DNA from: Eubacteriales bacterium
Lineage (GTDB): Bacteria; Bacillota; Clostridia; Oscillospirales; CAG-272
Assembly (NCBI GenBank): GCA_045542075.1
Contig: JAZQKI010000023.1
Coordinates: 18,727 to 82,726, forward strand
Direction: 5' to 3'
Length of the DNA: 64,000 bases
Shown here piece by piece: positions 25,961-63,941 of this stretch; the stretch's first letter is position 1, and each line of letters begins with the position of its first letter. A program made the position numbers and the translations under genes. Under the pieces are notes generated by a model. The model was not told the DNA's origin. It made no database searches and saw only the letters and a program-made list of their open reading frames with translations.

Positions 25961-26689
25961 ATGAAGGTTATCGTAGTAAAGAACTACACCGAAATGTCGA
26001 AGAAGGCGGCAGAAATGCTTGCCTCAGTTATCAAAAACAAGCCTGATTGCGTGCTTGGACTCGCAACGGGCAGCACCCCCGAGGGACTGTATGCAAATCT
26101 CGTGGAGCTTTACAAAAACGGCGTGCTTGATTTTTCAAAAGTAAGCTCGGTAAATCTTGACGAATACTATCCGATCTCCCCCGACAATGACCAGAGCTAT
26201 CGCTATTTTATGAATTATCACTTGTTTGATCACGTCAATATTGATAAAAAGAACACTCACGTCCCCAATGGAATGGCAGACGACGCAGAAGCAGCCTGCA
26301 AGGCTCATGAGGACACGATAGATAGGCTCGGCGGAATGGATATCCAGGTGCTCGGCATCGGTCAGAACGGACATATCGGCTTTAACGAGCCGACAGATAA
26401 CCCCGTCCCCTTCACTCACGTGGAAAAGCTGACGGAAAGCACCATAAAGGCAAACGCGAGATTTTTCGAGTCCGAGGCCGACGTTCCCACGCACTCTCTG
26501 ACGATGGGAATACAGAGCATACTCAAGGCTCGCAGCATAGTGGTTCTTGCCTCGGGAAGCTCCAAGGCAAAAGCCATACACGCGATGCTTATGGAGGATC
26601 CCTCTCCCCGTTGCCCCGCGTCTCTCCTTCACTCGCACCCCGACGTGACAGTCATCTGCGACGAGGATGCGTATAGTCTCTGTAAATGA
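25961..26689 (+). CDS. nagB: Glucosamine-6-phosphate deaminase
   Basis: LGLATGSTP, NLDEY, LGIGQNGHIGFNEP, TMGI, PAS.L. Confidence 0.97.
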   Translation: MKVIVVKNYTEMSKKAAEMLASVIKNKPDCVLGLATGSTPEGLYANLVELYKNGVLDFSKVSSVNLDEYYPISPDNDQSYRYFMNYHLFDHVNIDKKNTHVPNGMADDAEAACKAHEDTIDRLGGMDIQVLGIGQNGHIGFNEPTDNPVPFTHVEKLTESTIKANARFFESEADVPTHSLTMGIQSILKARSIVVLASGSSKAKAIHAMLMEDPSPRCPASLLHSHPDVTVICDEDAYSLCK

Positions 26690-26694
26690 TATTG

Positions 26695-26726
26695 AAAACG
26701 GCATTTGCGCTTGCAATTGCCGTTTT
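26695..26726 (+). terminator. Terminator after nagB (near-identical to 28872-28903)
   Basis: AAAACGGCATTTGC-GCTT-GCAATTGCCGTTTT. Confidence 0.8.
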
Positions 26727-26780
26727 TTGTTCGCCCACGGGATAGCCTTTCCCCACTAAACAATCAAATTCTTTTGAATA

Positions 26781-26809
26781 TTGACACATCTCTCGAAAAG
26801 TGCTATAAT
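26781..26809 (+). promoter_or_regulatory. SigA-type promoter of ktrBA
   Basis: TTGACA-17-TATAAT with TG extension. Confidence 0.8.
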
Positions 26810-26841
26810 ATACCTATAAATTTTCAAAGGAGGGCTTGAAT

Positions 26842-28203
26842 ATGAAGACGAGAGGCAAATTTTCTCTGTCAACGGCGCAGATAATTCTGTTCAGCTTTAT
26901 TATTGCCGTCCTTGTTGGAAGTCTTCTGCTGTGGCTGCCGATAAGCTCGGCTGACGGCAAGAGCGTGCCTTATATAGATGCCCTATTCACCGCCACCACG
27001 GCAACCTGCGTAACGGGGCTTGTCACTCTGCCAACCGTCAGCACCTGGAGTGTTTTCGGTCAGATAGTAATTCTCTTACTGATACAGATAGGCGGTCTTG
27101 GAGTCATAACCGTTATGTCGGGCTTTATGCTTGCCCTTCATCGCAAGATGGGGCTTGGCGACAGGCTTCTCATTCAGGACGCGTTCAACCTGAACACGCT
27201 CTCCGGCCTTACATCGTTTATAAAAAAGGTCATAATCGGCACGTTTATCGTCGAGGGCGTTGGCGCCCTGCTTTATATGACAGTATTTATACCCGACTTC
27301 GGCGCAAAGGGTATCTGGATATCAATTTTCAATTCCGTTTCCGCCTTCTGCAACGCGGGAATCGATATAATAGCAACGGACAGCCTCTGCTCCTACGCCA
27401 CCAATCCCATAACAAACATAGTCACTTGCTTGCTTATAGTTCTCGGCGGTATAGGCTATATCGTGTGGTGGGATCTCGCGAGAGTGCTTCCCGAGTTCAG
27501 AAAAAAAGGTCTCAAATTCCTGCGCTCGCTCACGCTGCACAGCAAGATCGCAATATGCGCGACCTTGATTCTGATATTTGCGGGCGGAGCGTTGATATTT
27601 GCCTTTGAATACAATAACCCCGCAACCATCGGGGATATGTCTTTGTTTGATAAGATACAGATCAGCCTTTTCCAATCCGTTACTACGAGGACCGCAGGCT
27701 TTGCGTCCCTTCCGCAGGAAAATCTGACCAACGCCTCGTCAATTGTTTGCCTTGTGCTTATGTTTATAGGCGGATCTCCCGTGGGAACCGCGGGCGGTAT
27801 AAAGACCGTCACCGTCGCCGTACTTTTCGCCTCTGCATACTCAACGGTTCTCGGCAAGGAGGAGGTATCTCTCTTCGGACGGAATATCTCACGAGAGGCT
27901 TTAAGAAAATCCGTCGCTGTCCTTGGCGCATCGTTTTCAATAATGCTTATCGCGACCCTTGCCCTGTCGGCTTGCACGGATGCCTCGGTAATAGACGTTC
28001 TTTATGAAACTGTAAGCGCTACGGCAACCGTCGGACTTACCCGAGGAATAACCTCAACTCTCAACGTTGCAGGTAAGATGATAATTATTTTTACTATGTA
28101 TCTCGGACGTGTGGGCCCTATATCTCTCGCGTTTGCGTTAAATGTTAAGAAAAGAAGCCAGAACATAATAAAAAATCCCTCTGAGGACATCAGCGTGGGA
28201 TAA
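26842..28203 (+). CDS. ktrB: Ktr/Trk potassium uptake membrane subunit
   Basis: ATCVTGL, SAFCNAG, TTRTAGF, MFIGGSP.GTAGGIK, SATATVGL, MYLGRVGP. Confidence 0.93.
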   Translation: MKTRGKFSLSTAQIILFSFIIAVLVGSLLLWLPISSADGKSVPYIDALFTATTATCVTGLVTLPTVSTWSVFGQIVILLLIQIGGLGVITVMSGFMLALHRKMGLGDRLLIQDAFNLNTLSGLTSFIKKVIIGTFIVEGVGALLYMTVFIPDFGAKGIWISIFNSVSAFCNAGIDIIATDSLCSYATNPITNIVTCLLIVLGGIGYIVWWDLARVLPEFRKKGLKFLRSLTLHSKIAICATLILIFAGGALIFAFEYNNPATIGDMSLFDKIQISLFQSVTTRTAGFASLPQENLTNASSIVCLVLMFIGGSPVGTAGGIKTVTVAVLFASAYSTVLGKEEVSLFGRNISREALRKSVAVLGASFSIMLIATLALSACTDASVIDVLYETVSATATVGLTRGITSTLNVAGKMIIIFTMYLGRVGPISLAFALNVKKRSQNIIKNPSEDISVG

Positions 28204-28218
28204 AGAAAGGATGTTTTT

Positions 28219-28869
28219 ATGAGTATAAATCAGACTTATGCAGTATTTGGTCTTGGCAGGTACGGCTTGGCCGTTGCCAAGGAGCTTGTAGGCAGCGGCG
28301 CAGAGGTGCTTGCTGTCGATATTGATGAGAGCATAGTCAATATAGCGGCAGCGCAGATCCCCGTCTGCAAATGCGCCGACGTCACTGACCCCGAGGTGCT
28401 TTCCCGCCTTGGAATAGGAAATGTGGACACCATCATTATCGCTATGGCGGAAAATCTTGAGGCAAGCGTGCTCACGACCATGCTTTGTAAGGAGGCAGGA
28501 GTTAAGACCGTTATCGCCAAGTGCGCCAACGAAACGCACAAAAAGATCCTTTTGCGCGTGGGTGCGGATAAGGTCGTATTCCCCGAGAGCGAGTCGGGAG
28601 CAAGACTTGCGAAGAACCTGCTCTCGTCCGGCTTTGTCGATATGATAGAGCTTGCGAGAAACGTGTCCATGATAGAGCTTGACGTCAAGGAAGAATGGGT
28701 GGGTAAAAATCTGCTTGAGCTTAACCTCAGAAAGAAATATTCTATAAACATCGTAGCGATCCGCTCGCGTGACAGCGTGCGCATCGAGATAAATCCCGAA
28801 ATTCCCCTTGAGGCAGACGAAAAGCTTATCGTTATCGCGAACACGTCAAAGCTGAGTAAGTTGAAGTAA
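28219..28869 (+). CDS. ktrA: Ktr/Trk potassium uptake RCK subunit
   Basis: AVFGLGRYG Rossmann motif, GADKVVFPE.ESG, TrkA-C domain. Confidence 0.93.
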   Translation: MSINQTYAVFGLGRYGLAVAKELVGSGAEVLAVDIDESIVNIAAAQIPVCKCADVTDPEVLSRLGIGNVDTIIIAMAENLEASVLTTMLCKEAGVKTVIAKCANETHKKILLRVGADKVVFPESESGARLAKNLLSSGFVDMIELARNVSMIELDVKEEWVGKNLLELNLRKKYSINIVAIRSRDSVRIEINPEIPLEADEKLIVIANTSKLSKLK

Positions 28870-28871
28870 TA

Positions 28872-28903
28872 AAAACGGCATTTGCTTTTGCAAATGCCGT
28901 TTT
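28872..28903. terminator. Bidirectional terminator between ktrA and the thioesterase gene
   Basis: AAAACGGCATTTGC-TTTT-GCAAATGCCGTTTT perfect hairpin. Confidence 0.85.
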
Positions 28904-29633
28904 ATATTTTTGAAAGCTTAACAATCGCCTCAAGGCATGTCTCGCCTGCAGAATTTGTTGTCTTAAGCTCAAAAAATCCGTCCTCGCGCAGACCTCTGTT
29001 GACCGTCAATGTAGCGCCAAGCGGCGCTTCCTTGAGATATGACAGCGACATTTCCGACACATATTTTTCCTGCATGTCGGGCAAAAAGTCGCAAAGCATA
29101 TCGGGGTAATTTGTGTTATTCATGTGCATATTGTAGTCTATGTCCGAGTAGAAAATTGTCCTCTCTCCGACTTTTTCAAGCACCTCGCCCTTGCCTATTC
29201 TCGCTCTCGGGGGCAAAATCGCCGCATCTATCGGCTCGTCGTAGGGGAAATTATCCCTTTGCAGGCGGTCCGCCTTTACGAGAGCCTTATTGTGTATATC
29301 AACAAGCGCCCACGTGCTTGAGGCACGCGCCACTATCTCGCCGTCAGCTCTCATCTCAAAAAATCTCAAAAACGAGTAGCCCTTTGCCTCCTTGCACCAC
29401 GTGCTGACCTCTATTTTCTTATATGCGGTCACAGGTTTTATTATCTTCATTGAAAGCTGGCTCAGAATAAATCCGACGCCCTCTTTGTCTCTCAGCTCGT
29501 CGAGCGGCATGCCAAACTCCGCGCACTGAATATTTGCAGTTTCCTGAAAATACATAAGTATCTTGCTCGTCCGCAGAACTCTGTTTGAGTCCGTGTCGTG
29601 CCATTTTGTCGTATATGTATGCGTAAATTTCAT
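28902..29633 (-). CDS. Acyl-ACP thioesterase (FatA/B-like double hotdog)
   Basis: YFQETA, ASSTWALVD, YSDIDYNMHMNNTNY, YLKEA. Start codon uncertain. Confidence 0.9.
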   Translation of the reverse strand: MKFTHTYTTKWHDTDSNRVLRTSKILMYFQETANIQCAEFGMPLDELRDKEGVGFILSQLSMKIIKPVTAYKKIEVSTWCKEAKGYSFLRFFEMRADGEIVARASSTWALVDIHNKALVKADRLQRDNFPYDEPIDAAILPPRARIGKGEVLEKVGERTIFYSDIDYNMHMNNTNYPDMLCDFLPDMQEKYVSEMSLSYLKEAPLGATLTVNRGLREDGFFELKTTNSAGETCLEAIVKLSKI

Positions 29634-29732
29634 AATTTCTCGGAAAGCTTTTTCAAGCCATTCCACACCTCATCAAAATGTTTTCCTTCCCGTCTATCCG
29701 ATTATAAACGGAACCTATGCCCTTTTATTCGG

Positions 29733-29788
29733 GAAGGTTTTTAGAAGGGGTGTGGGGAAACCTTTTCTCGAAAAAGGTTTCCCCACAT
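29733..29788 (-). repeat. REP-like family A, copy 4 (downstream of fba)
   Basis: The reverse complement reads TGTGGGGAAACCTTTTTCGAGAAAAGGTTTCCCCACACCCCTTCTAAAAACCTT. Confidence 0.8.
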
Positions 29789-29795
29789 ATTCCCA

Positions 29796-30755
29796 TTAAA
29801 GTGTATTCGAAGATCCAAGAACGTTCTTGATCTTATGCTGAACCATCTTCTTAACTTCTTCTCTACCCACCTTGAGATACTCACGGGGATCAAATGCCTC
29901 GGGCTTATTTGTGAGCACGCGGCGGATACCTGCGGTCATAGCGAGACGGATATCGGAGTCGATATTGATCTTACAAACAGCCATCTTAGCTGCGCGACGG
30001 AGCTGCTCCTCGGGGATACCAACTGCGTCGGGAAGCTTACCACCGATAGAATTTATCTCGGAAACGCATTCGTGAGCAACGCTGGACGCGCCGTGGAGAA
30101 CGATCGGGAACTCGGGAAGACGCTTGCCGACCTCCTCAAGAATATCAAAGCGGAGCGGAGGGGGAACGAGAACGCCGTTCTCATTTCTCGTGCACTGCTT
30201 TGCGGTGAACTTGTACGCGCCGTGGGATGTACCGATAGAGATAGCGAGAGAGTCAACGCCCGTACGTGAAACGAACTCCTCAACCTCCTCGGGACGAGTG
30301 TAAGAGGAATGCTCTGCGACAACGTCATCTTCAACACCCGCGAGAACGCCAAGCTCGCCCTCAACTACCGCGCCGTGAGCGTGAGCATACTCAACGACCT
30401 TCTTTGTGAGCGCGATGTTGTCCTCAAAGGAGTGGTGGGAGCCGTCGATCATAACGGATGTAAAGCCGCCGTCGATACAGGACTTGCAGATCTCAAAGTC
30501 TGCGCCGTGGTCAAGGTGAAGCGCAAGGTCTATTCCGCTGTCCTTAACTGCCGCGTTTGCGAGAGCCATGAGGTATTCGTGCTTTGCGTACTTGCGCGCG
30601 CCCGCAGATACCTGAAGGATAACGGGAGACTGCTCCTCAGCAGCCGCCTCGGTTATAGCCTGGATTATTTCCATATTGTTGATGTTGAATGCGCCTATCG
30701 CGTATCCGCCTGCGTAGGCCTTTTTGAACATTTCTTTAGTAGTTACGAGTGCCAT
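29796..30755 (-). CDS. fba: Class II fructose-1,6-bisphosphate aldolase
   Basis: GAFNINN.E, ALHLDHG, SVMIDGS, GTSHGAYK, IVLHGAS, KINIDSD. Confidence 0.97.
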   Translation of the reverse strand: MALVTTKEMFKKAYAGGYAIGAFNINNMEIIQAITEAAAEEQSPVILQVSAGARKYAKHEYLMALANAAVKDSGIDLALHLDHGADFEICKSCIDGGFTSVMIDGSHHSFEDNIALTKKVVEYAHAHGAVVEGELGVLAGVEDDVVAEHSSYTRPEEVEEFVSRTGVDSLAISIGTSHGAYKFTAKQCTRNENGVLVPPPLRFDILEEVGKRLPEFPIVLHGASSVAHECVSEINSIGGKLPDAVGIPEEQLRRAAKMAVCKINIDSDIRLAMTAGIRRVLTNKPEAFDPREYLKVGREEVKKMVQHKIKNVLGSSNTL

Positions 30756-30858
30756 ACTAAAATTCCTTTCAAAAGAATAAGTTTTTTAACAATTTATTTT
30801 ATCACATCTTTTGAAAAAAATCAAGTACTCTTTTCAGTTTTCTTTGTTTCCGAACAAA

Positions 30859-31353
30859 TTAAAATGTCTTGTTTTTTCCGTTTTCCTGCGCTATATCCGA
30901 CACCGCTCGGCCCTCATCCTGCAAAGCAGCCGCAGGGGACGCAAGCTCCGCCCGATCCGGTGCTTGCGCAGCGGACGTCTGCAATGGCGATGTATGAGCC
31001 ACGCCCGCAAGATTGAGACTGACCGCGATCGCGTTATCCACCTCGCTCATTTTAGCGGGGCTGAGATGCCCCGCCTTTTCCTTGAGTCGGCGCTTGTCGA
31101 GAGTCCGTATCTGTTCAAGCAGTATGACGGAGTCCTTTATAAGTCCCGTAGCCTCCGCGTATATGTCGATATGTGTGGGGAGCTTTGCCTTGCCTGTTTT
31201 TGATGTAATTGCGGCGGCAATCACCGTTGGGCTGTATTTGTTGCCTACGTCGTTTTGAATTATCAGAACGGGGCGGAGTCCACCCTGCTCGGAGCCTATA
31301 ACGGGGCTCAGATCGGCGTAAAATATGTCCCCTCTTTTTATGCTCGGTATCAT
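30859..31353 (-). CDS. mazF: MazF/NdoA(EndoA)-family endoribonuclease with C-terminal extension
   Basis: [53 protein letters not shown]. Confidence 0.93.
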
Positions 31354-31464
31354 TTTCTCGCTTCCTTCTTTCAGAATTTGTATTTTGATTTTTGACTCAA
31401 ATACATACCCTTAAACAAAAAACGGAAAATTTTGTTTTGCTTAAAAGCTTGCAAGCTGCGCAAA

Positions 31465-32244
31465 CTAAAAATATCCCTTACGGAACACACGCGGAAGAAA
31501 TATCGGAAACAGTGAAAGAAGCCCTGCTGCCGTTTCAAAACAAAGCAAAGCGGCAAGCAGCTTTCGAAAGAAACCGCCCTTTTGGCTTTGCGGCGGACCT
31601 GTGTCGGACGGATACTCTGACACGGACTCTGTATTTTCGGCAATCTCCTCCGTGGGTCGTTCCGCGGAGGGATGACTCTGCTCCGATGATGAAGGCGACT
31701 CTGTCGGATGTTCGACAAAGCTATCTGTGGGTAGCTCCGACAAGTCCGGGTCAATGCGCAAGCCTGAAAGTAGAATGTTTTGAGATAATATCCTGTTATC
31801 CTCAAAATATACAGCCGAAGACTTTGTGGGCAGAGACAATATAAACTCGATTTCTCCGTCATAACCATCGAGCGGCAAAAAGCACAAGGTCGCGATCCTG
31901 CCGCCGATCTCCGAATTTTCCTCGCCCCAGAGCAGCAGTCGAATTCTGCCCTCTCCGAGCGAGCAATCAAATTCAAGAGATTTCAGCGCATCCCCGCGCT
32001 CACATGAGCAGATCATTGTTTTTGCGGGGTCGTAGGTTATGTCAAGCTCCAAGCCGCAAAGCATGGATCCTTGCGGTGAAAACATTATTTTCAATATAAA
32101 AATGCCCGAGCTATCATCCATTGCGCCCTCAAGATAAATTCGCGGCTGTATGTCCTGCGCGCGGATACAGATCAGTCGCGAGGATATAAGAATAGGTAAA
32201 ATCAGCGCAAAAAGAAAAAAGACGGCTTTTTTGCATTTGCTCAC
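31465..32244 (-). CDS. Secreted/membrane protein with cohesin-like beta domain, P/S/E/T linker and C-terminal hydrophobic anchor
   Basis: GGAGG then GTG 32244. Signal-like N-terminus and the cohesin-like pattern GLELDITYDP...G.IATLCF. Confidence 0.6.
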   Translation of the reverse strand: MSKCKKAVFFLFALILPILISSRLICIRAQDIQPRIYLEGAMDDSSGIFILKIMFSPQGSMLCGLELDITYDPAKTMICSCERGDALKSLEFDCSLGEGRIRLLLWGEENSEIGGRIATLCFLPLDGYDGEIEFILSLPTKSSAVYFEDNRILSQNILLSGLRIDPDLSELPTDSFVEHPTESPSSSEQSHPSAERPTEEIAENTESVSEYPSDTGPPQSQKGGFFRKLLAALLCFETAAGLLSLFPIFLPRVFRKGYF

Positions 32245-32384
32245 GGCGTCCTCCTTTTTTGTGTGAAGCATTGATGATAAAATATATTTTTTACGTCGCG
32301 AGCTTATGCGGATATTTTTCGGACTTCGGGGCAAACTAAAATTGGGGACTTCCCTATTAAAGCATAAATTTATTGGAGATAAAT

Positions 32385-32675
32385 ATGAAAAACAAGACAT
32401 CAACATTTATCGCGCTTGTATTGGCATGTGTCCTTTGTTCCTTCTGTCTTTCTTCCTGCGGAGGAAACAACACAGACGGAAACAACGAAAAGGACTCAAC
32501 ACCCAATTCCACAGAAAAAGCGCCGACATCTCCTTCCGAGATAATGTCAGAGGTAGTTGACGATATAACTCCCGATCCCAAGAACGGCAGAACGGTCGAC
32601 GAGAACTCTGACGAATACACTGCCGACGAAAAGGACGGCCACGGCTTTATGTCGGACATGTTTGGCGGAAAATAA
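32385..32675 (+). CDS. Small acidic, disordered lipoprotein
   Basis: GGAG RBS, lipobox LSSC, and its own terminator GGGGCTGA-TC-TCAGCCCC-T. Confidence 0.75.
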   Translation: MKNKTSTFIALVLACVLCSFCLSSCGGNNTDGNNEKDSTPNSTEKAPTSPSEIMSEVVDDITPDPKNGRTVDENSDEYTADEKDGHGFMSDMFGGK

Positions 32676-32748
32676 GTTTTAGGGGCTGATCTCAGCCCCT
32701 TTTTTATAAAAGAGCGACAGGCAAATTGCCTGTCGCAAAGCTTTTTTA

Positions 32749-33513
32749 TTAAAGAGTTGAACCAAAGTCGGTGACAATTGTCTGTCCCGTAATTGCTCTT
32801 GACTCGTCGGATGCGAAGAACAAAAGCATATTTGCCACGTCGTCAGGCATGCAGGGCTGTACCTTGAGGTCGTTGTGCTTCATCATCTGTCCAAAGATGT
32901 TCATATCCATATTGGCAGGGCTCATTCCCGCAACCATAGGAGTCACGATGGTGCCGGGACAAAGCGCGTTACAACGCACGTTTGTTCCTACAAAGCGGAG
33001 CGCGGTATGACGTGTAAGTCCGATAACCGCCGCCTTGGACGCAACGTATGCCGCGCCGCCGCAGCCCATAACACCCGCAACAGACGCCACGTTAACGATA
33101 GAGCCATAACCCGTCTTTGCCATCTCTGCGGTTATCTCTCGCATCATACACATAGTTCCCTTTGTGTTGATGTCAATAACGCGGTTCATATCCTCATCGG
33201 TGAAGCTGTCGATAGCCTTAAGTCCCTCGTCAAGAACGCCCGCGTTGTTGATAAGAATATCAACCTTGCCAAATGCCTTGAGTGTTTCGTCAAGCACCTT
33301 TTTTGCGTCCTCTGCCTTGGAGATGTCGCTGACAACGGGGAGAACCTCGCCACCTGCCGCGCGTATTTTCTCCGCAACCTCAAGCAGAGGTGCTTCGCGG
33401 CGTGCGGTGATGACCACCTTTGCGCCCTCCGCGGCAAACTTTACCGCAGTTGCCGCTCCTACACCGGAGTTTCCGCCGGTAATAATTGCTACTTTTCCAT
33501 TCAAACGGTTCAT
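32749..33513 (-). CDS. Short-chain dehydrogenase/reductase (SDR)
   Basis: TGGNSGVG, NNAG, YVASK, PGTIVT. Confidence 0.95.
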   Translation of the reverse strand: MNRLNGKVAIITGGNSGVGAATAVKFAAEGAKVVITARREAPLLEVAEKIRAAGGEVLPVVSDISKAEDAKKVLDETLKAFGKVDILINNAGVLDEGLKAIDSFTDEDMNRVIDINTKGTMCMMREITAEMAKTGYGSIVNVASVAGVMGCGGAAYVASKAAVIGLTRHTALRFVGTNVRCNALCPGTIVTPMVAGMSPANMDMNIFGQMMKHNDLKVQPCMPDDVANMLLFFASDESRAITGQTIVTDFGSTL

Positions 33514-33613
33514 AATTATTATCCTCCTAAATTTTTTCGTTATATATATTATAACATAAAATCAAAATAAATACAAGGGGTTAAAAAAGCGGGAAATAAA
33601 TCCCGCTTTTTGC

Positions 33614-34441
33614 CTATACAAACCTCTGTGCGTAGCCGCATCTGCGACAAAGCTCCTCGGTGGCAACTCCGCGGCTAAAGCCGCATACCATAGCCTTGGC
33701 GCGCTCGGAGTTAAGAATATCATTTATATCGTCAGTGAATATGTTGCCGAGATTTATCACGCCGTCGCTGTCAAGACAGCACGGCACTATAGTTCCGTCG
33801 GCGAGAATGCCGAATTGGTCGCGGAGCCCGTAGCAAAAGAACTTATTTCCCTTTACATCCGCCTGACTGTCGGGCCACTCAAAGCGTTCTCCCCATTCAA
33901 GAAATATCTTGTTTTTTATTCTGATGCCGCGCGTGTTCTCTGCCCACTCGCCGTCTATATTTTGGCGGAGCAGAGTCATCGCCATCTCATTTCTGCCACC
34001 GTCAAAGCCTTTGTTCCACAAGCGGAAAACAACTATTACTCCCATCTTCGCAGCAGCCTTTGCAAAGTCGCAAAGTCCATTTACATAAGCCTCGTAGCTC
34101 TCGTCCGTGCCGTCCTCAAAGCTGTGCAAGGAGATGTTGACCTTGTGCAGCCACGCGCTCAAAAGCTCAGCTCCGCGTCTGCCGAGAAGCGTGCCGTTTG
34201 TGGTGATAATGGACTTATATCCGCGATCCCCCGCCATCTTTATGAACTCGGGCAGCTGCGGATGAGTCAGCGGCTCGCCCATCAGGTGATAATATATGTA
34301 TTTAGTCTTGTCCGTCAGCTTGTCGAGAATTTGCGAGAACTCGTCCGCGCTCATTCTCCGCCCATCCCGCTTGTGCCCGTGACAAAAGGAGCAGCTCATA
34401 TTGCAAATATTAGTTATCTCTACGTAGACCTTGCTGTACAT
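33614..34441 (-). CDS. Radical SAM protein with SPASM/twitch-type C-terminus
   Basis: CNMSCSFC, GEPL.HP, C..L....GILADG..VPCC.D...CRRC. Confidence 0.9.
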   Translation of the reverse strand: MYSKVYVEITNICNMSCSFCHGHKRDGRRMSADEFSQILDKLTDKTKYIYYHLMGEPLTHPQLPEFIKMAGDRGYKSIITTNGTLLGRRGAELLSAWLHKVNISLHSFEDGTDESYEAYVNGLCDFAKAAAKMGVIVVFRLWNKGFDGGRNEMAMTLLRQNIDGEWAENTRGIRIKNKIFLEWGERFEWPDSQADVKGNKFFCYGLRDQFGILADGTIVPCCLDSDGVINLGNIFTDDINDILNSERAKAMVCGFSRGVATEELCRRCGYAQRFV

Positions 34442-34517
34442 AATTGCTCCTTTCACGAAAGATTTTTATGAAATAGCCTCGCAGCTGTGCGAGGCTACTT
34501 TATGAGGATTTTGGGTA

Positions 34518-35522
34518 TTATTCCCACTCTATCGTGCCCGTAGGCTTAGGCGTAATATCGTAAAGCACGCGGTTTATTCCCTCTACCTCGCTTGTGATCC
34601 TTGCGCAGATCTTATGAAGAACTGCGTAGGGTATCTCCTCGATGGTCGCGGTCATGGCGTCCTTTGTGTTGACCGCGCGGATTATCGCGGGCCAGCCCTC
34701 GTAGCGGCTGTCGTCCTTTACGCCGACGCTCTTTATGTCGGGAATGACTACGAAATACTGCCATACCTTTTCAGCGAGTCCGTTTTTGTCAAACTCATCG
34801 CGGAGAATCGCATCTGCCTCGCGGAGCGCGTGAAGTCTGTCGCGGGTTATCGCGCCAAGACATCTGACACCAAGACCGGGGCCGGGGAATGGCTGACGAT
34901 AGACCATGCCGTGCGGGAGACCGAGCGCCTCGCCGACGACTCTGACCTCGTCCTTAAAGAGAAGCTTTACAGGCTCAACAAGCTCAAACTTGAGGTCCTC
35001 GGGAAGTCCGCCAACGTTGTGGTGTGACTTGACTGCCTTTTTGCCCTCTGCCTGCTTTACGGATTCAAGAATGTCGGGGTATATAGTTCCCTGCGCCAAA
35101 AACTCAACGCCCTCAAGCTTGCGCGCCTCGTCGGCAAACACCTCGATAAATTCCTTGCCGATTATCTTTCTCTTGCTTTCGGGGTCGGAAACGCCGCTGA
35201 GAAGGTCAAGGAAACGGTCTGTTGCGTCAACGTACACAAGGTTTGCGTCAAGAGACTTGCCGAAGATCTCAATCACCTGCTCGCTCTCACCCTTGCGCAT
35301 AAGTCCGTGATTTACGTGGACGCAGATGAGCTGCTTTCCGATAGCCTTGATAAGAAGCGCGGCTACGACGGACGAGTCAACTCCGCCCGAAAGCGCAAGC
35401 AACACCTTTTTGTCGCCGACCTGCTCTCTGATGGCAACTACCTGCTCGTCAATAAACTTGTCAGCAAGCTCTTTGTTTGTGATACGAGGCATCGTATCGG
35501 GTCTTACGTTTGGATTGTTCAT
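34518..35522 (-). CDS. guaA: GMP synthase, ATP-pyrophosphatase and dimerisation domains only (334 aa, no glutaminase domain)
   Basis: GGAGG RBS then ATG 35522. SGGVDS, LAQGTIYPD..ES, KSHHNVGG, RQPFPGPGL, DIT.KP..TIEWE. Confidence 0.93.
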   Translation of the reverse strand: MNNPNVRPDTMPRITNKELADKFIDEQVVAIREQVGDKKVLLALSGGVDSSVVAALLIKAIGKQLICVHVNHGLMRKGESEQVIEIFGKSLDANLVYVDATDRFLDLLSGVSDPESKRKIIGKEFIEVFADEARKLEGVEFLAQGTIYPDILESVKQAEGKKAVKSHHNVGGLPEDLKFELVEPVKLLFKDEVRVVGEALGLPHGMVYRQPFPGPGLGVRCLGAITRDRLHALREADAILRDEFDKNGLAEKVWQYFVVIPDIKSVGVKDDSRYEGWPAIIRAVNTKDAMTATIEEIPYAVLHKICARITSEVEGINRVLYDITPKPTGTIEWE

Positions 35523-35576
35523 GTCCTTGTCCTCCGCAAAACAGCCCTCACAGGCGTGAGATGATTTTATGTAATA

Positions 35577-35605
35577 ATTATAAACATATTTGCTTTTGTT
35601 GTCAA
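35577..35605 (-). promoter_or_regulatory. SigA-type promoter of guaA
   Basis: Minus strand TTGACA-17-TATAAT about 55 nt upstream of ATG 35522. Confidence 0.8.
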
Positions 35606-35787
35606 CAAAAAATAGCGAAAAAACATCCCGCCGAAAACAAAAATTTTTATGCGCATATTGCAGAATTTTTGTAGAAAAAATATAAAATAAGAGATTTTTC
35701 GCGTCAAAATCAAGGAATTGAAAAAATTTTGAAAAACCTATTGCAAAATTCAAAAAGGTGTGATATAATAGGAACGTTGTAAAACAC

Positions 35788-35863
35788 AGGGGTATAGCTC
35801 AGTTGGTAGAGTACCGGTCTCCAAAACCGTGGGTCGTGGGTTCGAGCCCTTCTGCCCCTGCCA
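35788..35863 (+). tRNA. tRNA-Trp(CCA)
   Basis: 76-nt cloverleaf AGGGGTA...TGCCCCT-G-CCA, anticodon loop CT-CCA-AA, TTCGA loop. Promoter TTGCAA-17-TATAAT at 35741-35769. Confidence 0.97.
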
Positions 35864-38285: not shown

Positions 38286-38639
38286 ATGAAAAAACCCTTA
38301 AATTTAATCTCATACTCTCTTTTCACCCTCTTTTATGCGGGCTTTTTCAGCCTTGGAATGATGTGCCTGCTCAATTTTTTCGGATTGGCTTTTTCCATTT
38401 CGCTTGACGGGCCGTCTGCCATTGAAGCATTTCCGAGATTTACTTTGTTCTGTATTTTAGTCGGGCTTTTCTGTTTGATAGCGTTGGTATTCCTTGCGAT
38501 ATTGAATATAAAATTTTCCGAGAAATTGAATTACGAAAAACGCACGTGGATCATTCAATCGGTATGCGCCCTCGTGCTTTCCGTTCCCTTGCTTAAGGTA
38601 TGGGAGCTGTTGTTTGATTTTATTCAAAAAGCGGTATGA
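38286..38639 (+). CDS. Hypothetical three-TM membrane protein
   Basis: AAGGAG RBS before ATG 38286, hydrophobic throughout, terminator at about 38643-38669. Confidence 0.7.
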   Translation: MKKPLNLISYSLFTLFYAGFFSLGMMCLLNFFGLAFSISLDGPSAIEAFPRFTLFCILVGLFCLIALVFLAILNIKFSEKLNYEKRTWIIQSVCALVLSVPLLKVWELLFDFIQKAV

Positions 38640-38766
38640 TTTTACCCCGCCGAGACAACTCGGCGGGGTTATATTATATCCTGATTTATTAATTGACACC
38701 CCACAAAATACGTGCTATAATAAACACAGAAAAATTCCGTCTGTCGGGCGAGGAAGGAGGACTTAT

Positions 38767-39828
38767 ATGAATAACCGCACGCGGGAGCTACTGATAGCCC
38801 ATTATCAGTCCTATCCCGAGCTTGAAATATACGACGTGTTCAAATTCATATTCCATAGCGCCATGGGCTGCGAGCATTTGGTGTCAGATTATAATGTCGC
38901 CGTGGATTATATCAAGCGCGAGTATTCCGCTATGCAGTCTCCGTCGTCCACTCTTGTAGACAGACTTGACGGAGAATACAGCCGCGTCCATCTGTCATAT
39001 CTTGACCGAGGGCTGAGCGCGAAAACTCTGGGAAAATTGTTCTGCAAGTCTGCAAAAATCATGGAAAACGGCAAATCAGAAATAGAGGACAAGCTCAAAA
39101 TCGCGCGAGAGCTTACACTTGACGGCAGTCTGCCCTTCTCTATCGACGAGTTTGACAAAGCCGCGACTGCTTGGACAAATAAGTCCTTATGCGCGATACA
39201 TCATTCAGAAAAATTCCGCGGTCACTATAAGCCCGCTTATCGAGTTGTTGCGAATGAATACGTCAAATTCCTGCCCTTATTTTGCGAGATAGATAAGCTG
39301 CTCCAAAAAGGCTCGGCAGTCGTTGCCATTGAGGGCGGCGCCGCTTCGGGCAAGACAACTCTTGCAAAAATGCTTGAGGATATCTACGACTGCACAGTCC
39401 TGCACACCGATGACTTTTTCTTGCACCCCGAGCAGCGCACACCCCAGCGTCTCTCCGAGATAGGCGGCAATATGGACCGAGAGAGATTTCTCTCCGAGGT
39501 GTTGACACCTCTCAGCCAAGGTGAAGAGCTTTCATACCGAAAATTCGACTGCTCAACTCAGCAGCTTATGCCGTCCGAGGTCATCTGCCCCAAAAAGCTG
39601 ACGGTTATCGAGGGCTCATACTCAATGCACCCGTCTCTTGCAAAATTTTACGACCTATCGGTGTTTTTGGAGATCAACCCCGAAAAACAGAGAGAGCGTA
39701 TTCTTACGCGAAACTCTCCACCCTTCGCAACCCGATTTTTTGACGAGTGGATACCCAAGGAAAGAGAATATTTCTCGCGTTTCGGTATAAAAGAGTCTTG
39801 CGATATTTGCCTATGTGACGACGCCTGA
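38767..39828 (+). CDS. Fusion of an unknown N-terminal domain and a uridine-kinase-like P-loop domain
   Basis: AIEGGAASGKTT, H.DDFF, YRKFDC, IEGSYS. Promoter TTGACA-17-TATAAT at 38693-38721. Confidence 0.8.
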   Translation: MNNRTRELLIAHYQSYPELEIYDVFKFIFHSAMGCEHLVSDYNVAVDYIKREYSAMQSPSSTLVDRLDGEYSRVHLSYLDRGLSAKTLGKLFCKSAKIMENGKSEIEDKLKIARELTLDGSLPFSIDEFDKAATAWTNKSLCAIHHSEKFRGHYKPAYRVVANEYVKFLPLFCEIDKLLQKGSAVVAIEGGAASGKTTLAKMLEDIYDCTVLHTDDFFLHPEQRTPQRLSEIGGNMDRERFLSEVLTPLSQGEELSYRKFDCSTQQLMPSEVICPKKLTVIEGSYSMHPSLAKFYDLSVFLEINPEKQRERILTRNSPPFATRFFDEWIPKEREYFSRFGIKESCDICLCDDA

Positions 39829-41738: not shown

Positions 41739-44700
41739 TTATTCTGTAAAGGTTATAGAGTAATCAAAGCTTCCGTCAGCTCCCACGGGAACAAACGCAA
41801 ATCTTACGTCATACTCGTCAGCCGAATAGCCGAGAGCTGTCGCAAGCTGCTCTACCTCGCTCTTGCTGAACACCTTTGCTCTGAGCGTATCATGCTCTGT
41901 GACGGTAACGTTATCAAGAATGATCTCGTCATTTCCGTCCTCGCCGGGTGTATGGAGGATAAGGCTTACGTAATACATAAACTCGACGTCATTATTTACG
42001 TAATAGCCAACGACGTAATTCTCTCCGTTGCCGTAATCGTCCGAGAAATCCTCGAAAATTATGTCGCCATTCGCGCCGTTCGCGTTCTCAAGACCGCATT
42101 CGCTGCAGCAGTATCCTTCGCCGTCACTATTGCCATACCAATAATGTCCGTGCGCAGAGTAAGTGCCTTGATACAAGGTCATTTCACAGAAGTCACAATA
42201 CTCGTAATACGATCCATTCTGAGTGCAGGTGGGATACTTGGTCGTGTTGATGTGCGAGCCTACGTGATTTTCCTCGGTCTTCGTGCTGCTTTCACCGCTG
42301 CTGTGCTTGTAATTCGTGGTTTTGGTGCAACCGCCCGAGAATTTATACGTGTAATCGTACCTGTACCACGTTCCGTCGGAGTGGTTTATGCTGTACTCAT
42401 ATATCTTAAATCTGTAATCCTTATAATACGTATATGCGTATTCACGTCCGCTGTTTTCTCCGTCGGAGTTTCTGTAGGTCTCGACCATCTTATATCCCTC
42501 AGAGCCGAAGCTTGCCGTATAAGTGCTGCGAGTATAAAGATTTTCGTACCAGGATTCGCTTCCGTCGGCGTTGATATATTTGACGTACTCTCTGGAATTA
42601 TAGCGATTTCCGTTGTAACTTGAATACTCGTATATCTCGTTTCTGTACTTGCGTCTTCCGTCCTCAAGCTTATTGATCGCGATTATCTCACTCTTTGCGG
42701 TATATCCATCAGCGTCGTAATAATCTATGGAGCTGTAGCTGCTGCCACAGTCGGAGCAATAATACTCGGTACCCCAGGCTGTGTCTTCCTCTATATTGGT
42801 GACCGTGTAATTGTGATAAGCTGCGCTTCCCGTCTTATAGGTAATCTCATATGCACACTTACCCGTCTCCTCGTTATAGCCAAACTGCCATGTCACGTAT
42901 CTGTCCGCACGGCATTCTCCCGGAACAGCAAGCCAGTATATAGCAGTTCTTATCTTGTATGCGCACTGCTCGGGGTCAGTCACCGCGCAGGTGTAGACAG
43001 TGGCGGTGTAACCAAAGTAATTTGTGCCCGACGCGGTATATTGGTTTTCATTTATATAACCGTCGATCCACATATCGCACCAATTGGAATCAAACTCACA
43101 AAGCACGTCGTCGTGTATATCGACCGATTTGTTCTCTCCGCAAACACAGCTGTAATGATAAGCATATCCGCCGCATACGCTGCCGTACTTGGACAGATCT
43201 ATGGTTTCAACCAGGAGCGAGGTGTGCCAGCTGTACTGCTGCTCGTAGGAATGTCCGCAGTCGCGACAGGTGTACGTGATTATAACTCCGTCATCGCAGG
43301 ACTTTGCTCCGTCCACAAGCTTGCCAGTCGCCTTATAGTCGTGCGCCTCCCATGATTTATGGCTCTCAATGGGCTCAAGAGCACCGCCGTTTGCCGATAC
43401 GACGTAGGTTGAATACTGTGTTGTCGTACAGGTCTTGGAATCTCTTTCCTCATAGTAGGAGTGCTGAATTCTGAGCCCGCACTTATCACAGGACGCCACA
43501 GAAACGTGAACGAGTCTTCCGTAATCGTCGAAATATTCGTTGTCCGTATATTTGCATGAGCACATACCGTACATATCGTAATATACGTTCTGCTCATATC
43601 CGCAAGGACATGAATACTTCTCAATATATCCGCCGCAGGCTCCGATGTCCTCAAGATTGTGATATTCTACTAAGAAGGTATTGTGCCAGTTCATTTCCTC
43701 GTTGTAGGAATATCCGCAATCACGGCATGTATACGTCACAGTATAGCCGTCCTCACAGGATTTGCCGTGCATATCAAAGTCGTACTTGTAGTTATGCTCC
43801 TTGTCAGTGGAGTAAACGTACTCATAGTCCTCTATAAGCACTGTATCGCCAACCTTTACAGTGTAGCTTCTGTAGCGGATAACGTCGCATCCCTCCTTGA
43901 CGGAATAGCTTTCGCGTATCATCCTGAATTCACACTTATTGCAGGTAAATGTTCTTATTTCATGCTCGATGCCGTTTTCGTCGGTAATATACTCCGTTGT
44001 ATAGGAGTAATCACACTTCATGCTGTCATCAAAGCTCTTGTTCTTGCCGCAGGCACATTCTTCAATACGAACGTATCCGCCGCAAGCGCCATACTCGGAA
44101 AGCTCAAATCTGTACTTTTCATACAGGTAGTGGTCATACTCCTCATATTCCTTTGAATATCCGCAGTCGCGGCATGTATACGTGACGAGATATCCCTCCT
44201 CGCAGGACTTTCCGTACAGCATGAAGGAATAGCTGTAGTTGTGATCTTCCCATTCGCTGTACTTATGCTTATAGTTGGAAATTACGGTCTGATCACCGAC
44301 CTTTATCGTGTAGACGTAATATCTGACCTCGAGGCATCCCTCCTTAACTGTGTAGGAATCGCTGGTCATAACAAGACCGCAGTCCTCACAGGTCATAGTT
44401 CTGATGCTGTGCCAGATTCCGTTTGCGTCCTCAACATCCTCATAGGTCGATGTATAATTGCAATCTATATCGTATTGGAAGGATTGTCTCTGTCCACAAG
44501 GGCAGTTATATATTTCTACGTAGCCGCCGCATGCACCGAAAGCTGAAAGATCATATTTTTCTTTGAGATAAGTCTCATGCCAGCTTCTCTCCTCATCGTA
44601 GGAGTGTCCGCAGTCCTTACATACGGCGTGAACTGTATATCCGTCCTCACAAGACTTGCCGTTCATATCATAGGTGAACGAATAATTATGGCTTTGCTGC

Positions 44701-59087: not shown

Positions 59088-59101
59088 ATTTTGCATTTAT
59101 C

Positions 59102-60511: not shown

Positions 60512-60512
60512 T

Positions 60513-61358: not shown

Positions 61359-61373
61359 CCCTATACCTGCCTT

Positions 61374-61426
61374 TTAAGATGTAATATTACATCTTAATTA
61401 TACATTAGACAAGTCTGCAATGTCAA
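61374..61426 (-). promoter_or_regulatory. Promoter of the PHP-like/MATE unit with a perfect 24-bp palindrome
   Basis: Minus strand TTGACA-18-TATAAT (61397-61426) and TTAAGATGTAAT|ATTACATCTTAA at 61374-61397. Confidence 0.7.
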
Positions 61427-61511
61427 GAGTTTTTTGAGTGTGTCTTGACTTTATGCGGGTTTATGGTATAATAAGACTTGTAACAGAAAATTTCCTGAAA
61501 GGAGGGTGCGT

Positions 61512-62666
61512 ATGACAGAAATAACATATCCCGAAAAGGTCAGAAAAATATTTGAGATATTCAACAAGCACGGATACGATGCTTATGCCGTCGGCGGCTG
61601 TGTCAGAGACTCTCTTATGGGAAGGACCCCTGCCGATTGGGATATAACCACGTCTGCATCACCCGAAAAAATCATTGAGATATTTGAGCGCGAGGGCATC
61701 CGTACGCTCCCCACGGGACTCAAGCACGGCACGGTTTCAGTCCTGCTTGACGGAGAGATATTTGAATGCACGACCTTCCGCATCGACGGAGATTATAAGG
61801 ACTCGCGCCACCCCGAAAGCGTCAGCTTTACGGATAAATTGGAGCTTGATCTTGCCCGCCGCGACTTTACAGTCAATGCTATGGCGGCATCGTCCGAGCG
61901 TGGTGTCTGTGACTTTTTCGGCGGCAGAGATGATCTTGAAAAAGGTTTTATCCGCTGTGTCGGAAACCCTCATCTTCGCTTTTTTGAGGATGCGCTCCGC
62001 ATTCTTCGCGGAGTCCGTTTTGCGACCGTACTCAACTTTGATATAGAAGCCGAAACCCTTTGTGCTATAAAGGATCTGGCGCATACACTGTCGGATATCT
62101 CCGCCGAGAGAAAGACCGTGGAATTTTCAAAAATCCTCTGCTCGGAGTTTGCTGACAGAGGCGCGAAATTGCTGTTTGAGACGGGCATCATATATGAGCT
62201 TTTACCCGACGCGCAGACTCTTCCAACTAATATGACCTTGCTTAATTCTGAGTTTTCCCTCCGTCTTGCTACGTTTATGCACCAATCGGGAGCGAGAGAT
62301 CTTTCAAGGCTCAGACTCTCCAACGCCCAGAAAAAATCCATATCAATTTTGCTCACTCCCATTGAGTTTACAGACACCGACGAGGGCGCGCGCCGCACTC
62401 TCGCAGAATACGGCGAGCTTGCGATCCCCGCTTGCAAGCTTTGGGGCAGAGATACTCTTTTGGAACTTGTCGCAAAGCAAAAAAAGCTTGATCCCGCAGT
62501 GAGCATAAGTCAGCTTGAAATTGACGGAAATATTCTCCTCTCGATAGGTATTCGACCCGAAAATATAGGAAAAACACTCTCCGCTCTGCTTGATGCTGTC
62601 ATTTGTCACCCCGAGTTGAATAATAAAAATTCCCTTATTGAAGAGGCTAAAAGAATAAACGCATAA
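61512..62666 (+). CDS. cca: CCA tRNA nucleotidyltransferase (class II)
   Basis: VGGCVRD.L, DWDITT, G.KHGT, DLARRDFTVNAMA, EDALRILR..RF, SAER. Confidence 0.93.
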   Translation: MTEITYPEKVRKIFEIFNKHGYDAYAVGGCVRDSLMGRTPADWDITTSASPEKIIEIFEREGIRTLPTGLKHGTVSVLLDGEIFECTTFRIDGDYKDSRHPESVSFTDKLELDLARRDFTVNAMAASSERGVCDFFGGRDDLEKGFIRCVGNPHLRFFEDALRILRGVRFATVLNFDIEAETLCAIKDLAHTLSDISAERKTVEFSKILCSEFADRGAKLLFETGIIYELLPDAQTLPTNMTLLNSEFSLRLATFMHQSGARDLSRLRLSNAQKKSISILLTPIEFTDTDEGARRTLAEYGELAIPACKLWGRDTLLELVAKQKKLDPAVSISQLEIDGNILLSIGIRPENIGKTLSALLDAVICHPELNNKNSLIEEAKRINA

Positions 62667-62897
62667 ATACCCGAAAAAATTTCGGTATTTATGCGTTTGT
62701 TTTTGTAAAAATATTTTGAAAAATACTCAATAATGTTGACAAAGCAGTCCCAAAAGAGTTATAATAAAATGATATAATGCGAAAGTAGGATAATTTTTTG
62801 AAATTTGAGTATTTTTTGCATATTCTTCAGGTTTTGCGACGGGCAGATGGCGTCGCAAAGCGCTCACACAACTAAAAATCAAGAATGGAGAAAAGGC

Positions 62898-63941
62898 ATG
62901 AAGAAGATCTACATTATCTTGCAAAACGGTCAGGTTTTTGAGGGAAGATCATTCGGCGCAGAGGGCCGTGTGGTCGGTGAAATTATTTTCACAACTTCAA
63001 TGGTAGGATATCTCGAGGCTCTTACAGACCCCGTATATCACGGACAAATACTCGTCCAGACCTTCCCCCTCATCGGTAATTACGGAGTTATCGAACAAGA
63101 CCTCCAGACAGACAAAATTCACGCGTCGGCATACGTGGTAAGAGAATGGGCAAATAACCCCTCAAATTACCGTTGCGGCGGAGATATTGACTCATGGCTC
63201 AAGAAAAACGGTGTCGTAGGTATCTGCGACGTCGACACAAGAGCGCTGACTGAGGCAATTCGTGACTATGGCGTTATGAACGCGATCATCACGGACACCC
63301 TCCCCGACCCCATAGTTCCCGACGAGGTGATCACCTATGCGGTTAAAAACTACGTCTCGGCAGTCACCTGCACCGAGAAAAAGCTTTATCCGGCTGAAAA
63401 CGCAAGATATAACGTAGCTATTTATGATTTCGGCGTGACGGCAAGCGTTATAGACAGTCTCACAAGCCGTGGCTGCAACGTCACCGTCTTCCCTGCAAGC
63501 ACTCCCGCTTCAGATATACTTTGCGGCGGATTTGACGGAGTCGTGCTTTCAAACGGCCCCTGCGGAGATCCAAAGGACAACGTCGAAATAATCCTTGAAA
63601 TAAGAAAGCTGCTCGGTAGCCTTCCCATGTTCGGCATGGGACTTGGCCATCAGCTCGCTGCTCGCGCGGCAGGAGCAGGCACGACTAAATTGAAGTTTGG
63701 TCACCACGGTGCAAATCAACCCGTTAAAAACACCGAAACGGGTAAGGTCGAGATAACCAACCAGGCGCATCTCTACACCGTCAACCCCGCCCGTCTCCCC
63801 GCCTCCGCAACTCTCACGGAAATAAACGTCCTTGACGGCTCGGTCGAGGCGATAGAATACAGAGAACAAAAGGCATTTACGGTACAATATTATCCGAGCG
63901 ATATTCACTTTGATAAGTTTGTAAAGCTTATGGAAAAGTAA
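62898..63941 (+). CDS. carA: Carbamoyl-phosphate synthase small subunit, catalytic triad degenerate
   Basis: GE..F.TSMVGY.E.LTDP.Y.GQI, DTRALT, DFG, LSNGP, KFGHHGANQPVK. It has FGMGLGHQ and VQYYPS in place of FGICLGHQ and VQYHPE. Confidence 0.92.
   Translation: MKKIYIILQNGQVFEGRSFGAEGRVVGEIIFTTSMVGYLEALTDPVYHGQILVQTFPLIGNYGVIEQDLQTDKIHASAYVVREWANNPSNYRCGGDIDSWLKKNGVVGICDVDTRALTEAIRDYGVMNAIITDTLPDPIVPDEVITYAVKNYVSAVTCTEKKLYPAENARYNVAIYDFGVTASVIDSLTSRGCNVTVFPASTPASDILCGGFDGVVLSNGPCGDPKDNVEIILEIRKLLGSLPMFGMGLGHQLAARAAGAGTTKLKFGHHGANQPVKNTETGKVEITNQAHLYTVNPARLPASATLTEINVLDGSVEAIEYREQKAFTVQYYPSDIHFDKFVKLMEK

Follow-up and report, generated by a model that had tools for sequence, protein, structure and literature searches.

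In textbooks, the synthesis of purines, pyrimidines, GMP, and NAD draws its nitrogen in vivo from glutamine, and to our knowledge all glutamine amidotransferases examined so far can use NH3 in vitro. Vertebrate carbamoyl phosphate synthetase (CPSase) I (CPS1) is an ammonia-dependent CPSase with a dead glutaminase domain, in which Ser occupies the position of the glutaminase Cys. The present analysis concerns a 64,000-nucleotide stretch of DNA (the window; G000:C23:18727-82726) from a Eubacteriales bacterium of the CAG-272 lineage, in which the GMP synthase gene, guaA', lacks a glutaminase domain and the CPSase small-subunit gene, carA, encodes a substituted catalytic triad. The genome (G000) comprises 1.64 Mb in 48 contigs, with a completeness of 96.65%, and it also encodes a PurF homolog without the N-terminal Cys (PurF') and an NadE with a dead nitrilase-type domain, which makes four glutaminase-dead enzymes in one genome. 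Gene calls in the window were based on Pfam and NCBIfam profile scans. We consider it fairly probable that, in this gut Clostridia bacterium, free ammonia serves for the majority of nitrogen transfers and glutamine is retained for some of them.

Related cases have been described. Escherichia coli PurF in which Cys1 is replaced loses glutamine use and keeps ammonia use (as cited in PMC3261824), Cys mutants of the Plasmodium GMP synthetase retain NH4Cl-dependent activity (PMC9312489), and NAD is made from free ammonia in vivo by NadE of the single-domain form (PMC3376133). How glutaminase and synthetase parts are arranged was tabulated for 490 to 886 genomes by De Ingeniis et al. (2012) (PMC3376133, Table 1), and "no glutaminase" was listed only for NadE (44%) and not for guaA (730 genomes, 100% fused), carAB (600 genomes), pyrG, purL, or asnB. 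In Crenarchaeota, a Cys-less paralog, also called PurF', is encoded near purF and other pur genes; its function as an ammonia-dependent phosphoribosyl pyrophosphate (PRPP) aminotransferase is a proposal only (Brown et al. 2011, PMC3261824). A literature search, outside which lay subscription journals and supplements, retrieved no description of a bacterial dead CarA, a GuaA lacking the glutamine amidotransferase (GATase) domain, a Cys-less PurF, or the co-occurrence of these proteins; the archaeal PurF' came closest. What is new is that several such enzymes occur as a set, that this set recurs in different families, and that it is linked with loss of the ammonium transporter Amt.

The CarA-CarB pair resembles vertebrate CPS1 in retaining a glutaminase-like module that is unable to hydrolyze glutamine, in the Ser found in the CarA of one congener (G013), and in its predicted use of NH3. 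It differs from CPS1, a single fused polypeptide, in that two genes, carA and carB, encode the subunits, Gly is the most usual replacement, the His and Glu of the triad are also lost, eight residues are often deleted, and CarB is fused to DapF; moreover, we know of no N-acetylglutamate control in CarA-CarB pairs of this kind. PurF' can be compared with its crenarchaeal namesake by features rather than by descent: both lack the N-terminal Cys and are encoded among pur genes, but the present family is of the [4Fe-4S] Bacillus subtilis type and is very conserved (MGGFFG...DYHSHLGT). GuaA' shares the PP-loop SGGVDSS, the dimerization domain, and the C-terminal motif with the archaeal two-subunit GMP synthetase and with canonical bacterial GuaA, and it differs from the archaeal enzyme in that no partner glutaminase subunit was found in G000. 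NadE is like the E. coli-type single-domain enzyme in its predicted use of free ammonia and unlike it in keeping two domains, with Tyr in place of the Cys.

The frame that contains guaA' (34518-35753, minus strand) matched GMP_synt_C (PF00958) at 127 bits and included a PP-loop, and the Pfam scan revealed no GATase domain in it. The likely start of the protein is the Met at frame residue 78 (MNNPN...), 40 residues before the PP-loop. GuaA' scored 474.8 bits against NF000848 (cutoff, 400), with the match covering only model positions 195 to 512 of 512, and 451 bits against TIGR00884 (cutoff, 339). In the whole genome, guaA' was the only PF00958 match. Four canonical GuaA proteins of relatives (506 to 523 aa) matched G000 in tblastn searches only over their own residues ~197 to 510, and their glutaminase halves had no match in G000 at an E value of ≤0.01; a degraded glutaminase remnant upstream of guaA' was rejected on the basis of these searches. 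No class I glutaminase carrying a Cys-His-Glu triad was found for GuaA', either as a domain of the protein itself or as a partner subunit anywhere in the genome, and the neighbors of guaA', a radical SAM gene and unannotated open reading frames (ORFs), included no candidate glutaminase gene.

In an order-wide sample of 151 genomes from 26 families, each at least 90% complete and G000 included, GuaA' was 69 to 98% identical to short-type copies (72 to 98% for those of relatives) and, over the half that it shares with canonical GuaA, ~55% identical to the latter. Short-type GuaA alone was found in 40 genomes, short-type GuaA with another match in 33, canonical GuaA alone in 73, and no match at an E value of ≤1e-30 in 5; the order-wide classes were assigned from percent identity, the length of the frame, and how many matches a genome had, without reading each sequence, and the tables were transcribed by hand, which weakens the case built on them. 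Short-type and canonical GuaA genes were adjacent by coordinates in several genomes (G029, G047, G105, and G164). Five members of the short clade (L167-L171 = G054, G057, G139, G101, and G136; frames of ~435 to 458 aa) keep a glutaminase-fold stub of ~100 residues (MKQDMILILDLGSEEN...), in which LCVDHKG replaces the GICYGMQ-like nucleophile motif, the nucleophile Cys is absent, and the second half of the domain is missing. These stub-bearing members imply that the short clade descends from full-length GuaA, and they look like an intermediate between the full-length protein and the 334-aa form. A recent-pseudogene reading of guaA' was rejected because the gene is conserved across families. To judge from these alignments, GuaA' is an old, conserved, glutaminase-less paralog that was retained after the canonical copy was lost, with no decay within the present lineage.

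The product of carA retains both domains of the small subunit, CPSase_sm_chain (PF00988, 169 bits) and GATase (PF00117, 107 bits), and it passed two NCBIfam cutoffs (NF009475, 363 versus 221 bits; a second model, 355 versus 307 bits). The nucleophile Cys is replaced by Gly (FGMGLGHQ versus FGICLGHQ in relatives), and comparison of VQYYP(8-residue gap)SD with VQFHPEAxxGPxDT in relatives showed replacement of His by Tyr and of Glu by Ser together with the deletion of eight residues. The initial annotation had described glutaminase loss by domain absence in guaA and by triad substitution in carA; both descriptions proved correct. No intact carA or guaA glutaminase was found elsewhere in the genome; the refuting case set out in that annotation did not arise. 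All six CarA copies of the genus lack the Cys, with Gly in five and Ser in one, and the replacements of His and Glu vary: in G000, G006, and G010, Gly is accompanied by QYYP and the eight-residue deletion; Gly is also found in G002 and, along with QFRPD, in G005; and G013 has Ser with QFLPE and no deletion. The ratio of nonsynonymous to synonymous substitution rates (dN/dS) was 0.08 to 0.12 for the whole carA gene and 0.07 to 0.13 for the dead domain (five of seven pairs, those with unsaturated dS). A recent-pseudogene reading of carA was rejected because of this low dN/dS. The gene appears to have lost its catalytic residues in place, and its product, as far as the pattern of substitution indicates, is still functional and no relic.

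CarB, encoded just beyond the end of the window, is a 1364-aa fusion with a C-terminal diaminopimelate epimerase, DapF (PF01678, 166 bits; TIGR00652, 248 bits), and it was judged intact (NF003671, 1413 bits). A CarB-size ORF, or an ORF cut by the end of the locus, directly followed a dead carA in 9 of 12 loci; in the remaining 3, the locus stopped there or no ORF was found. An ORF of 1345 to 1365 aa was also noted after carA in 11 of 20 related loci, with dead and intact CarA alike, and the CarB of one fusobacterial locus has 1070 aa.

Parsimony on a CarA tree of 29 rows gave four state changes, and well-supported branches forced at least two independent losses, in a sample that is biased because the dead motif was among the patterns used in the scan that supplied its rows. 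Free of that motif-scan bias was an exhaustive HMMER search over 1.84 billion cluster representatives (50% identity), in which the Cys was absent from 91 of the best 150 representatives (Gly in 75, Asp in 8, Asn in 3, Ser in 2, and others in 3, with His and Glu very varied); the query was itself a dead CarA, which may have favored dead relatives and to that extent weakens the case. Ten of these clusters were looked up, and their named members were metagenome-assembled genomes (MAGs) of Clostridia, Ruminococcus, Oscillospiraceae, and Ruminococcaceae, some of them annotated "glutamine-hydrolyzing." The nearest public relatives of carA belonged to Eubacteriales MAGs, and further ones belonged to Acutalibacteraceae, Oscillospiraceae, and Clostridia, several of them from the ruminant gut according to database records. 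The sequencing runs that matched window positions 25900 to 35800 were DNA gut metagenomes only, and no RNA run was listed.

PurF' (474 aa) is the only PurF homolog in G000 and is encoded in the operon purE-purF'-purM-purN-purD-purL-gdhA, in which gdhA, a gene of the NADP-type glutamate dehydrogenase family (L044:1415-2761, minus strand, G000:C46), lies directly downstream of purL on the pur-operon strand. Its N terminus is MGGFFG, and Gly2 aligned with Cys1 of B. subtilis PurF (PDB 1ao0) in an alignment that spanned residues 3 to 415. The HRGQE, HVRY, HNG, and SDTE stretches of 1ao0, which we take to be the glutamine-site motifs of PurF, are replaced, with the cluster cysteines and the VDDSIVRGT sequence of the PRPP loop left in place. 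PurF' scored 161 bits against TIGR01134, under the cutoff of 350. It was found with 66 to 96% identity in all 15 sampled genomes of the genus, with 72 to 73% identity in two other families, and with 52 to 76% identity across the order, and canonical PurF (EECGVFG) was only ~33% identical to it. The first 18 PurF' copies that were read all begin MGGFFG...DVFFGTDYHSHLGT; among 14 further genomes, the start was MGG in 10, MSG in 3, and an alternative start before GGFLG in 1, and the DYHSHLGT motif was present in all 18 and all 14. Among at least 8000 candidates from 5.8 billion proteins, the best 120 matches were at least 74% identical, and the few named ones were called "amidophosphoribosyltransferase."

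By PurF type, the 151 genomes divided into 40 with PurF' only, 29 with PurF' and a second match, 69 with the canonical type only, and 13 with none. In 6 of 14 genomes, a canonical Cys-bearing PurF gene adjoins purF' (L152-L157: G142, G126, G149, G119, G099, and G144). As the sole PurF homolog found in G000 and in 39 other sampled genomes, PurF' must carry the pathway alone there. Like GuaA', PurF' is, on the strength of this conservation, an old glutaminase-less paralog that was retained after loss of the canonical copy and did not decay within the present lineage; the conservation of both speaks for working proteins and not for relics.

NadE has the two-domain form (NF002730, 728 bits; PF02540, 90 bits; CN-hydrolase PF00795, 44 bits). 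Its GVEFYEDL stretch aligned with EICED in 12 of 17 aligned relatives, which places Tyr at the triad Cys, and the triad Glu and Lys are retained. Within the genus, the Cys position is occupied by Tyr in G000, G006, and G002; by Ser in G013; and by Gly in G005, in which Glu and Lys are also changed, and seven other members retain the Cys. The five species with a Cys-less NadE are the same species that bear a dead CarA. The catalytic residue of NadE was, by all appearances of the alignment, lost in place.

The rest of the genome was audited for amidotransferases and for enzymes of ammonia assimilation. Genes for AsnA (356 bits), GuaB (637 bits), and GdhA are present. PyrG was not found in G000 with the PF06418 profile or by tblastn with PyrG of two relatives, nor was AsnB with PF13522, PF13537, or tblastn with AsnB of one relative, nor TrpG/PabA with PF00117 or tblastn with TrpG of one relative. 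Profile searches gave no match in G000 for glutamate synthase (GOGAT; PF00310), GatA (PF01425), PdxT (PF01174), or Amt (PF00909). PyrG likewise went undetected in 14 of the 15 genus genomes and in 4 of the 10 further families that were sampled, and its lack points to cytidine salvage rather than to a change of donor. A single match to the OTCace family, in the lower-scoring class, was taken to be PyrB, and CarAB is also present. The window encodes a 404-aa protein (38614-39828, plus strand) with a C-terminal uridine-kinase/PRK-like P-loop domain (PF00485, 29 bits), which might play a part in salvaging pyrimidines where PyrG is missing. One congener, G012 (an assembly of 350 contigs with 86% completeness and 3% contamination), has the variants together with canonical PurF, GuaA, PyrG, AsnB, and GOGAT; this species is less reduced, or else the bin is mixed.

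Across the order, PurF' as the only PurF and short GuaA as the only GuaA occurred together in 25 of the 151 genomes versus ~10.6 expected if they were independent (Fisher p=1e-8); here and below, the statistics count related genomes as independent, which they are not, so that the p-values overstate the association and to that extent weaken the case built on it. The 25 genomes fall in 11 of the 26 families and never make up more than half of the sample of any family. Amt was found in none of the 25, as opposed to 55 of the 126 others (p=5e-6). By class, Amt was found in 0 of 40 genomes with short GuaA only, 2 of 40 with PurF' only, and 20 of 29 with both PurF forms. In one family (f19), four genomes with the set lack Amt and four without the set have it. 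The median number of class I glutaminase matches was one in the 25 genomes versus four in the rest. The recurrence of the set in many families, together with the absence of Amt, suggests commitment to an ammonia-rich habitat.

A tentative extension, for which the odds seem to us somewhat unfavorable, is that the glutaminase-less proteins (PurF', GuaA', dead CarA, and dead NadE) form a second set, of high-ammonia isozymes, in gut Clostridia of the Oscillospirales type. Genomes with dual sets, most of which bear Amt, would then switch between the sets according to nitrogen supply, and many lineages would have become independently committed, dropping Amt and the canonical copies. The strongly favored Gly at the old nucleophile site of CarA and the invariant DYHSHLGT motif of PurF' would, in such a case, be adaptations for letting in or binding free NH3/NH4+ and not mere decay.

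One further gene in the window, nagB, closes a run of three same-strand genes, serC-serA-nagB, which are separated by 21 and 17 nucleotides (Table 1). GlmS was not found in G000 with PF13522 and PF13537 profiles or by tblastn with GlmS of two relatives, and none was found in the nearest relative, G006; a GlmS-sized gene is present in G002, G005, G010, and G012. The nagB product could be a reverse, ammonia-dependent glucosamine-6-phosphate (GlcN6P) synthase, or it could serve the usual salvage or catabolism of N-acetylglucosamine (GlcNAc). The situation resembles that of Akkermansia muciniphila, in which, according to PMC5902328, GlmS is absent and NagB is the sole link between fructose-6-phosphate and GlcN6P; it differs in that the present nagB sits behind serC-serA, away from amino-sugar catabolic genes. 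The initial annotation had placed nagB in an anabolic context, which its position after serC-serA bears out; the role assigned to it was overstated, given the presence of NagA and the Akkermansia case considered below.

Table 1. Coordinates of the genes discussed (positions in the window unless a contig or locus is named)
Gene	Position	Strand	Description
guaA'	34518..35522	-	334 aa; ATP-pyrophosphatase and dimerization parts; glutaminase domain absent
carA	62898..63941	+	347 aa, likely start MKKIY; CPSase small subunit with dead triad; frame 62805-63941
carB-dapF	G000:C23:82811-86905 (= L045:812-4906)	+	Starts ~145 nt downstream of carA, just past window end
serC	23640..24734	+	serC-like class V aminotransferase; PF00266, 148 bits; first of serC-serA-nagB run
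serA	24756..25943	+	serA-like D-2-hydroxyacid dehydrogenase; PF02826, 123.7 bits, and PF00389
nagB	25961..26689	+	Glucosamine-6-phosphate deaminase; TIGR00502, 275.7 bits (cutoff, 236.9)

Elsewhere in the window, two ORFs of 2752 aa (41739-49997, minus strand) and 1549 aa (2440-7089, minus strand) had no Pfam match at an E value of ≤0.001. In addition, a protein with a MazF/PemK-type toxin domain (PF02452, 125 bits) is encoded at 30859-31353 on the minus strand, and the 313-aa ORF upstream of it (31465-32406) had no Pfam match.

In the proposed scheme, NH3 would enter the cell, probably by diffusion because no Amt was found, and GdhA would fix it into glutamate. GuaA' would take NH3 directly to make GMP; the Cys-less PurF' would likewise take it to make phosphoribosylamine; CarB, paired with the dead but conserved CarA, would turn it into carbamoyl phosphate, from which pyrimidines are made; NadE, with its dead nitrilase-type domain, would use it to make NAD; and AsnA would use it to make asparagine. 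The weakest step is that from NH3 to GlcN6P, which NagB may carry out in reverse. Glutamine would still be made by two glutamine synthetases and be used by HisH, PurL, and protein synthesis, and the glutamine dependence of HisH and PurL implies that glutamine synthetase would stay essential. Loss of glutaminase function would save the ATP that glutamine synthetase spends per amide and would also end futile hydrolysis. Historically, the lineage would have kept GuaA' and PurF' while losing the canonical copies, and CarA and NadE would have decayed in place.

Several observations weigh against this reading or limit its reach. The only class I glutaminase domains (PF00117) in the whole genome are those of the dead CarA and of HisH, and HisH is intact (GICLGMQ...FHPE; TIGR01855, 219 bits; cutoff, 105); the large PurL is also intact (GICNGFQ...HGEG; TIGR01857, 1869 bits; cutoff, 1057), and there are two glutamine synthetases, a type I GlnA (525 bits; cutoff, 429) and a GSIII-like gene. 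The organism is for these reasons not glutamine-free, and any ATP saving is partial. The genome-wide switch to ammonia put forward in the initial annotation accordingly survives as a broad one only, with its four glutaminase-dead enzymes on one side and HisH, PurL, and two intact glutamine synthetases on the other, and its proposed saving of ATP by skipping glutamine synthetase is curtailed by the two genes that remain. Among the nine further enzymes for which it had predicted decay, PurF and NadE are dead; PyrG, GlmS, AsnB, TrpG, and GatA were not found; and HisH and PurL are intact. Decay as the origin fits CarA and NadE, which changed in place, and not GuaA and PurF, which are retained old paralogs. 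As for the enzymes of nitrogen supply that it had singled out (glnA, gdhA, asnA, and amtB), the presence of GdhA and AsnA and the failure to find GOGAT and Amt fit its idea, and the two glutamine synthetase genes do not. A strict version, in which ammonia replaces glutamine completely and glutamine synthetase is dispensable as a supplier of the donor, could draw on the four dead enzymes and on AsnA and GdhA, but it is contradicted by the intact triads of HisH and PurL, both of which passed equivalog cutoffs, and by the type I GlnA and GSIII-like genes, and we regard it as highly improbable. Furthermore, the use of ammonia was deduced from lost residues and conservation. For NadE, dividing dN of the glutaminase domain by dN of the synthetase domain gave 1.6 to 3.2 in Cys-less pairs versus 0.6 to 2.1 in Cys-keeping pairs (18 pairs), so the glutaminase domain evolves only modestly faster in the Cys-less pairs and relaxation is no more than suggested. 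Every absence in G000 carries two caveats, the completeness of 96.65% and a first-look filter in the profile search that may miss weak matches. The five enzymes that were not found may be a sign of a reduced genome that depends on auxotrophy and salvage rather than of a new nitrogen donor, and for PyrG in particular there is no ammonia-only substitute. Finally, NagA is encoded elsewhere in G000 in a sugar-type operon, and according to PMC5902328, the NagB of the GlmS-less Akkermansia was unable to aminate fructose-6-phosphate and GlcNAc was required; together, these two points imply that GlcN6P may derive from salvaged GlcNAc.

The last points lead to the explanation that reductive evolution and salvage suffice, with the glutaminase-less proteins being inactive relics or having other roles and with nucleobases or nucleosides, NAD precursors, GlcNAc, and amino acids being imported. 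The small size of the genome (1.64 Mb), the failure to find PyrG, GlmS, AsnB, GOGAT, GatA, TrpG, and PdxT, the uridine-kinase-like domain at 38614-39828, and the presence of NagA with the Akkermansia precedent are all consistent with it, and the lack of PyrG implies that at least CTP must come by salvage. Nevertheless, the pur operon around PurF' looks complete and GuaB is present; the dN/dS of carA is ~0.1 with the dead domain included; PurF' and GuaA' are 52 to 98% identical across 26 families, substrate-site motifs included; and the same variants occur beside canonical enzymes in larger genomes, all of which makes this explanation unlikely in our view. Glutamine might instead still be the donor, with glutaminase activity supplied in trans by an unrecognized subunit, by a moonlighting HisH, or by a free glutaminase that raises internal NH3. 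Separate glutaminase subunits are common, examples being the GMP synthetase of archaea (PMC9312489) and the Thermus NadE (PMC3376133), both of which consist of two subunits, and glutamine synthetase is kept in two copies. In contrast, HisH and the dead CarA hold the only class I domains of this genome; apart from PurF', it gave no match to the class II glutaminase, amidase, or SNO families, in searches that did not extend to GlsA-type or unrecognized partners; and no candidate gene lies near guaA' or within the pur operon. PurF' has, moreover, lost its own glutamine-binding residues, and we know of no two-subunit PurF. Supply in trans seems to us quite doubtful.

The reading in which most nitrogen-transfer steps run on free ammonia, if true, would provide an enzyme-level explanation for the ammonia dependence of many rumen and gut anaerobes. 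Metabolic models and the automatic annotation of genes now named "glutamine-hydrolyzing" would change, and the gene set would serve as a genomic marker for commitment to ammonia-rich habitats. Should the proteins indeed form a set of high-ammonia isozymes, then a large part of the gut microbiota would be an exception to the rule that amide nitrogen always comes from glutamine.

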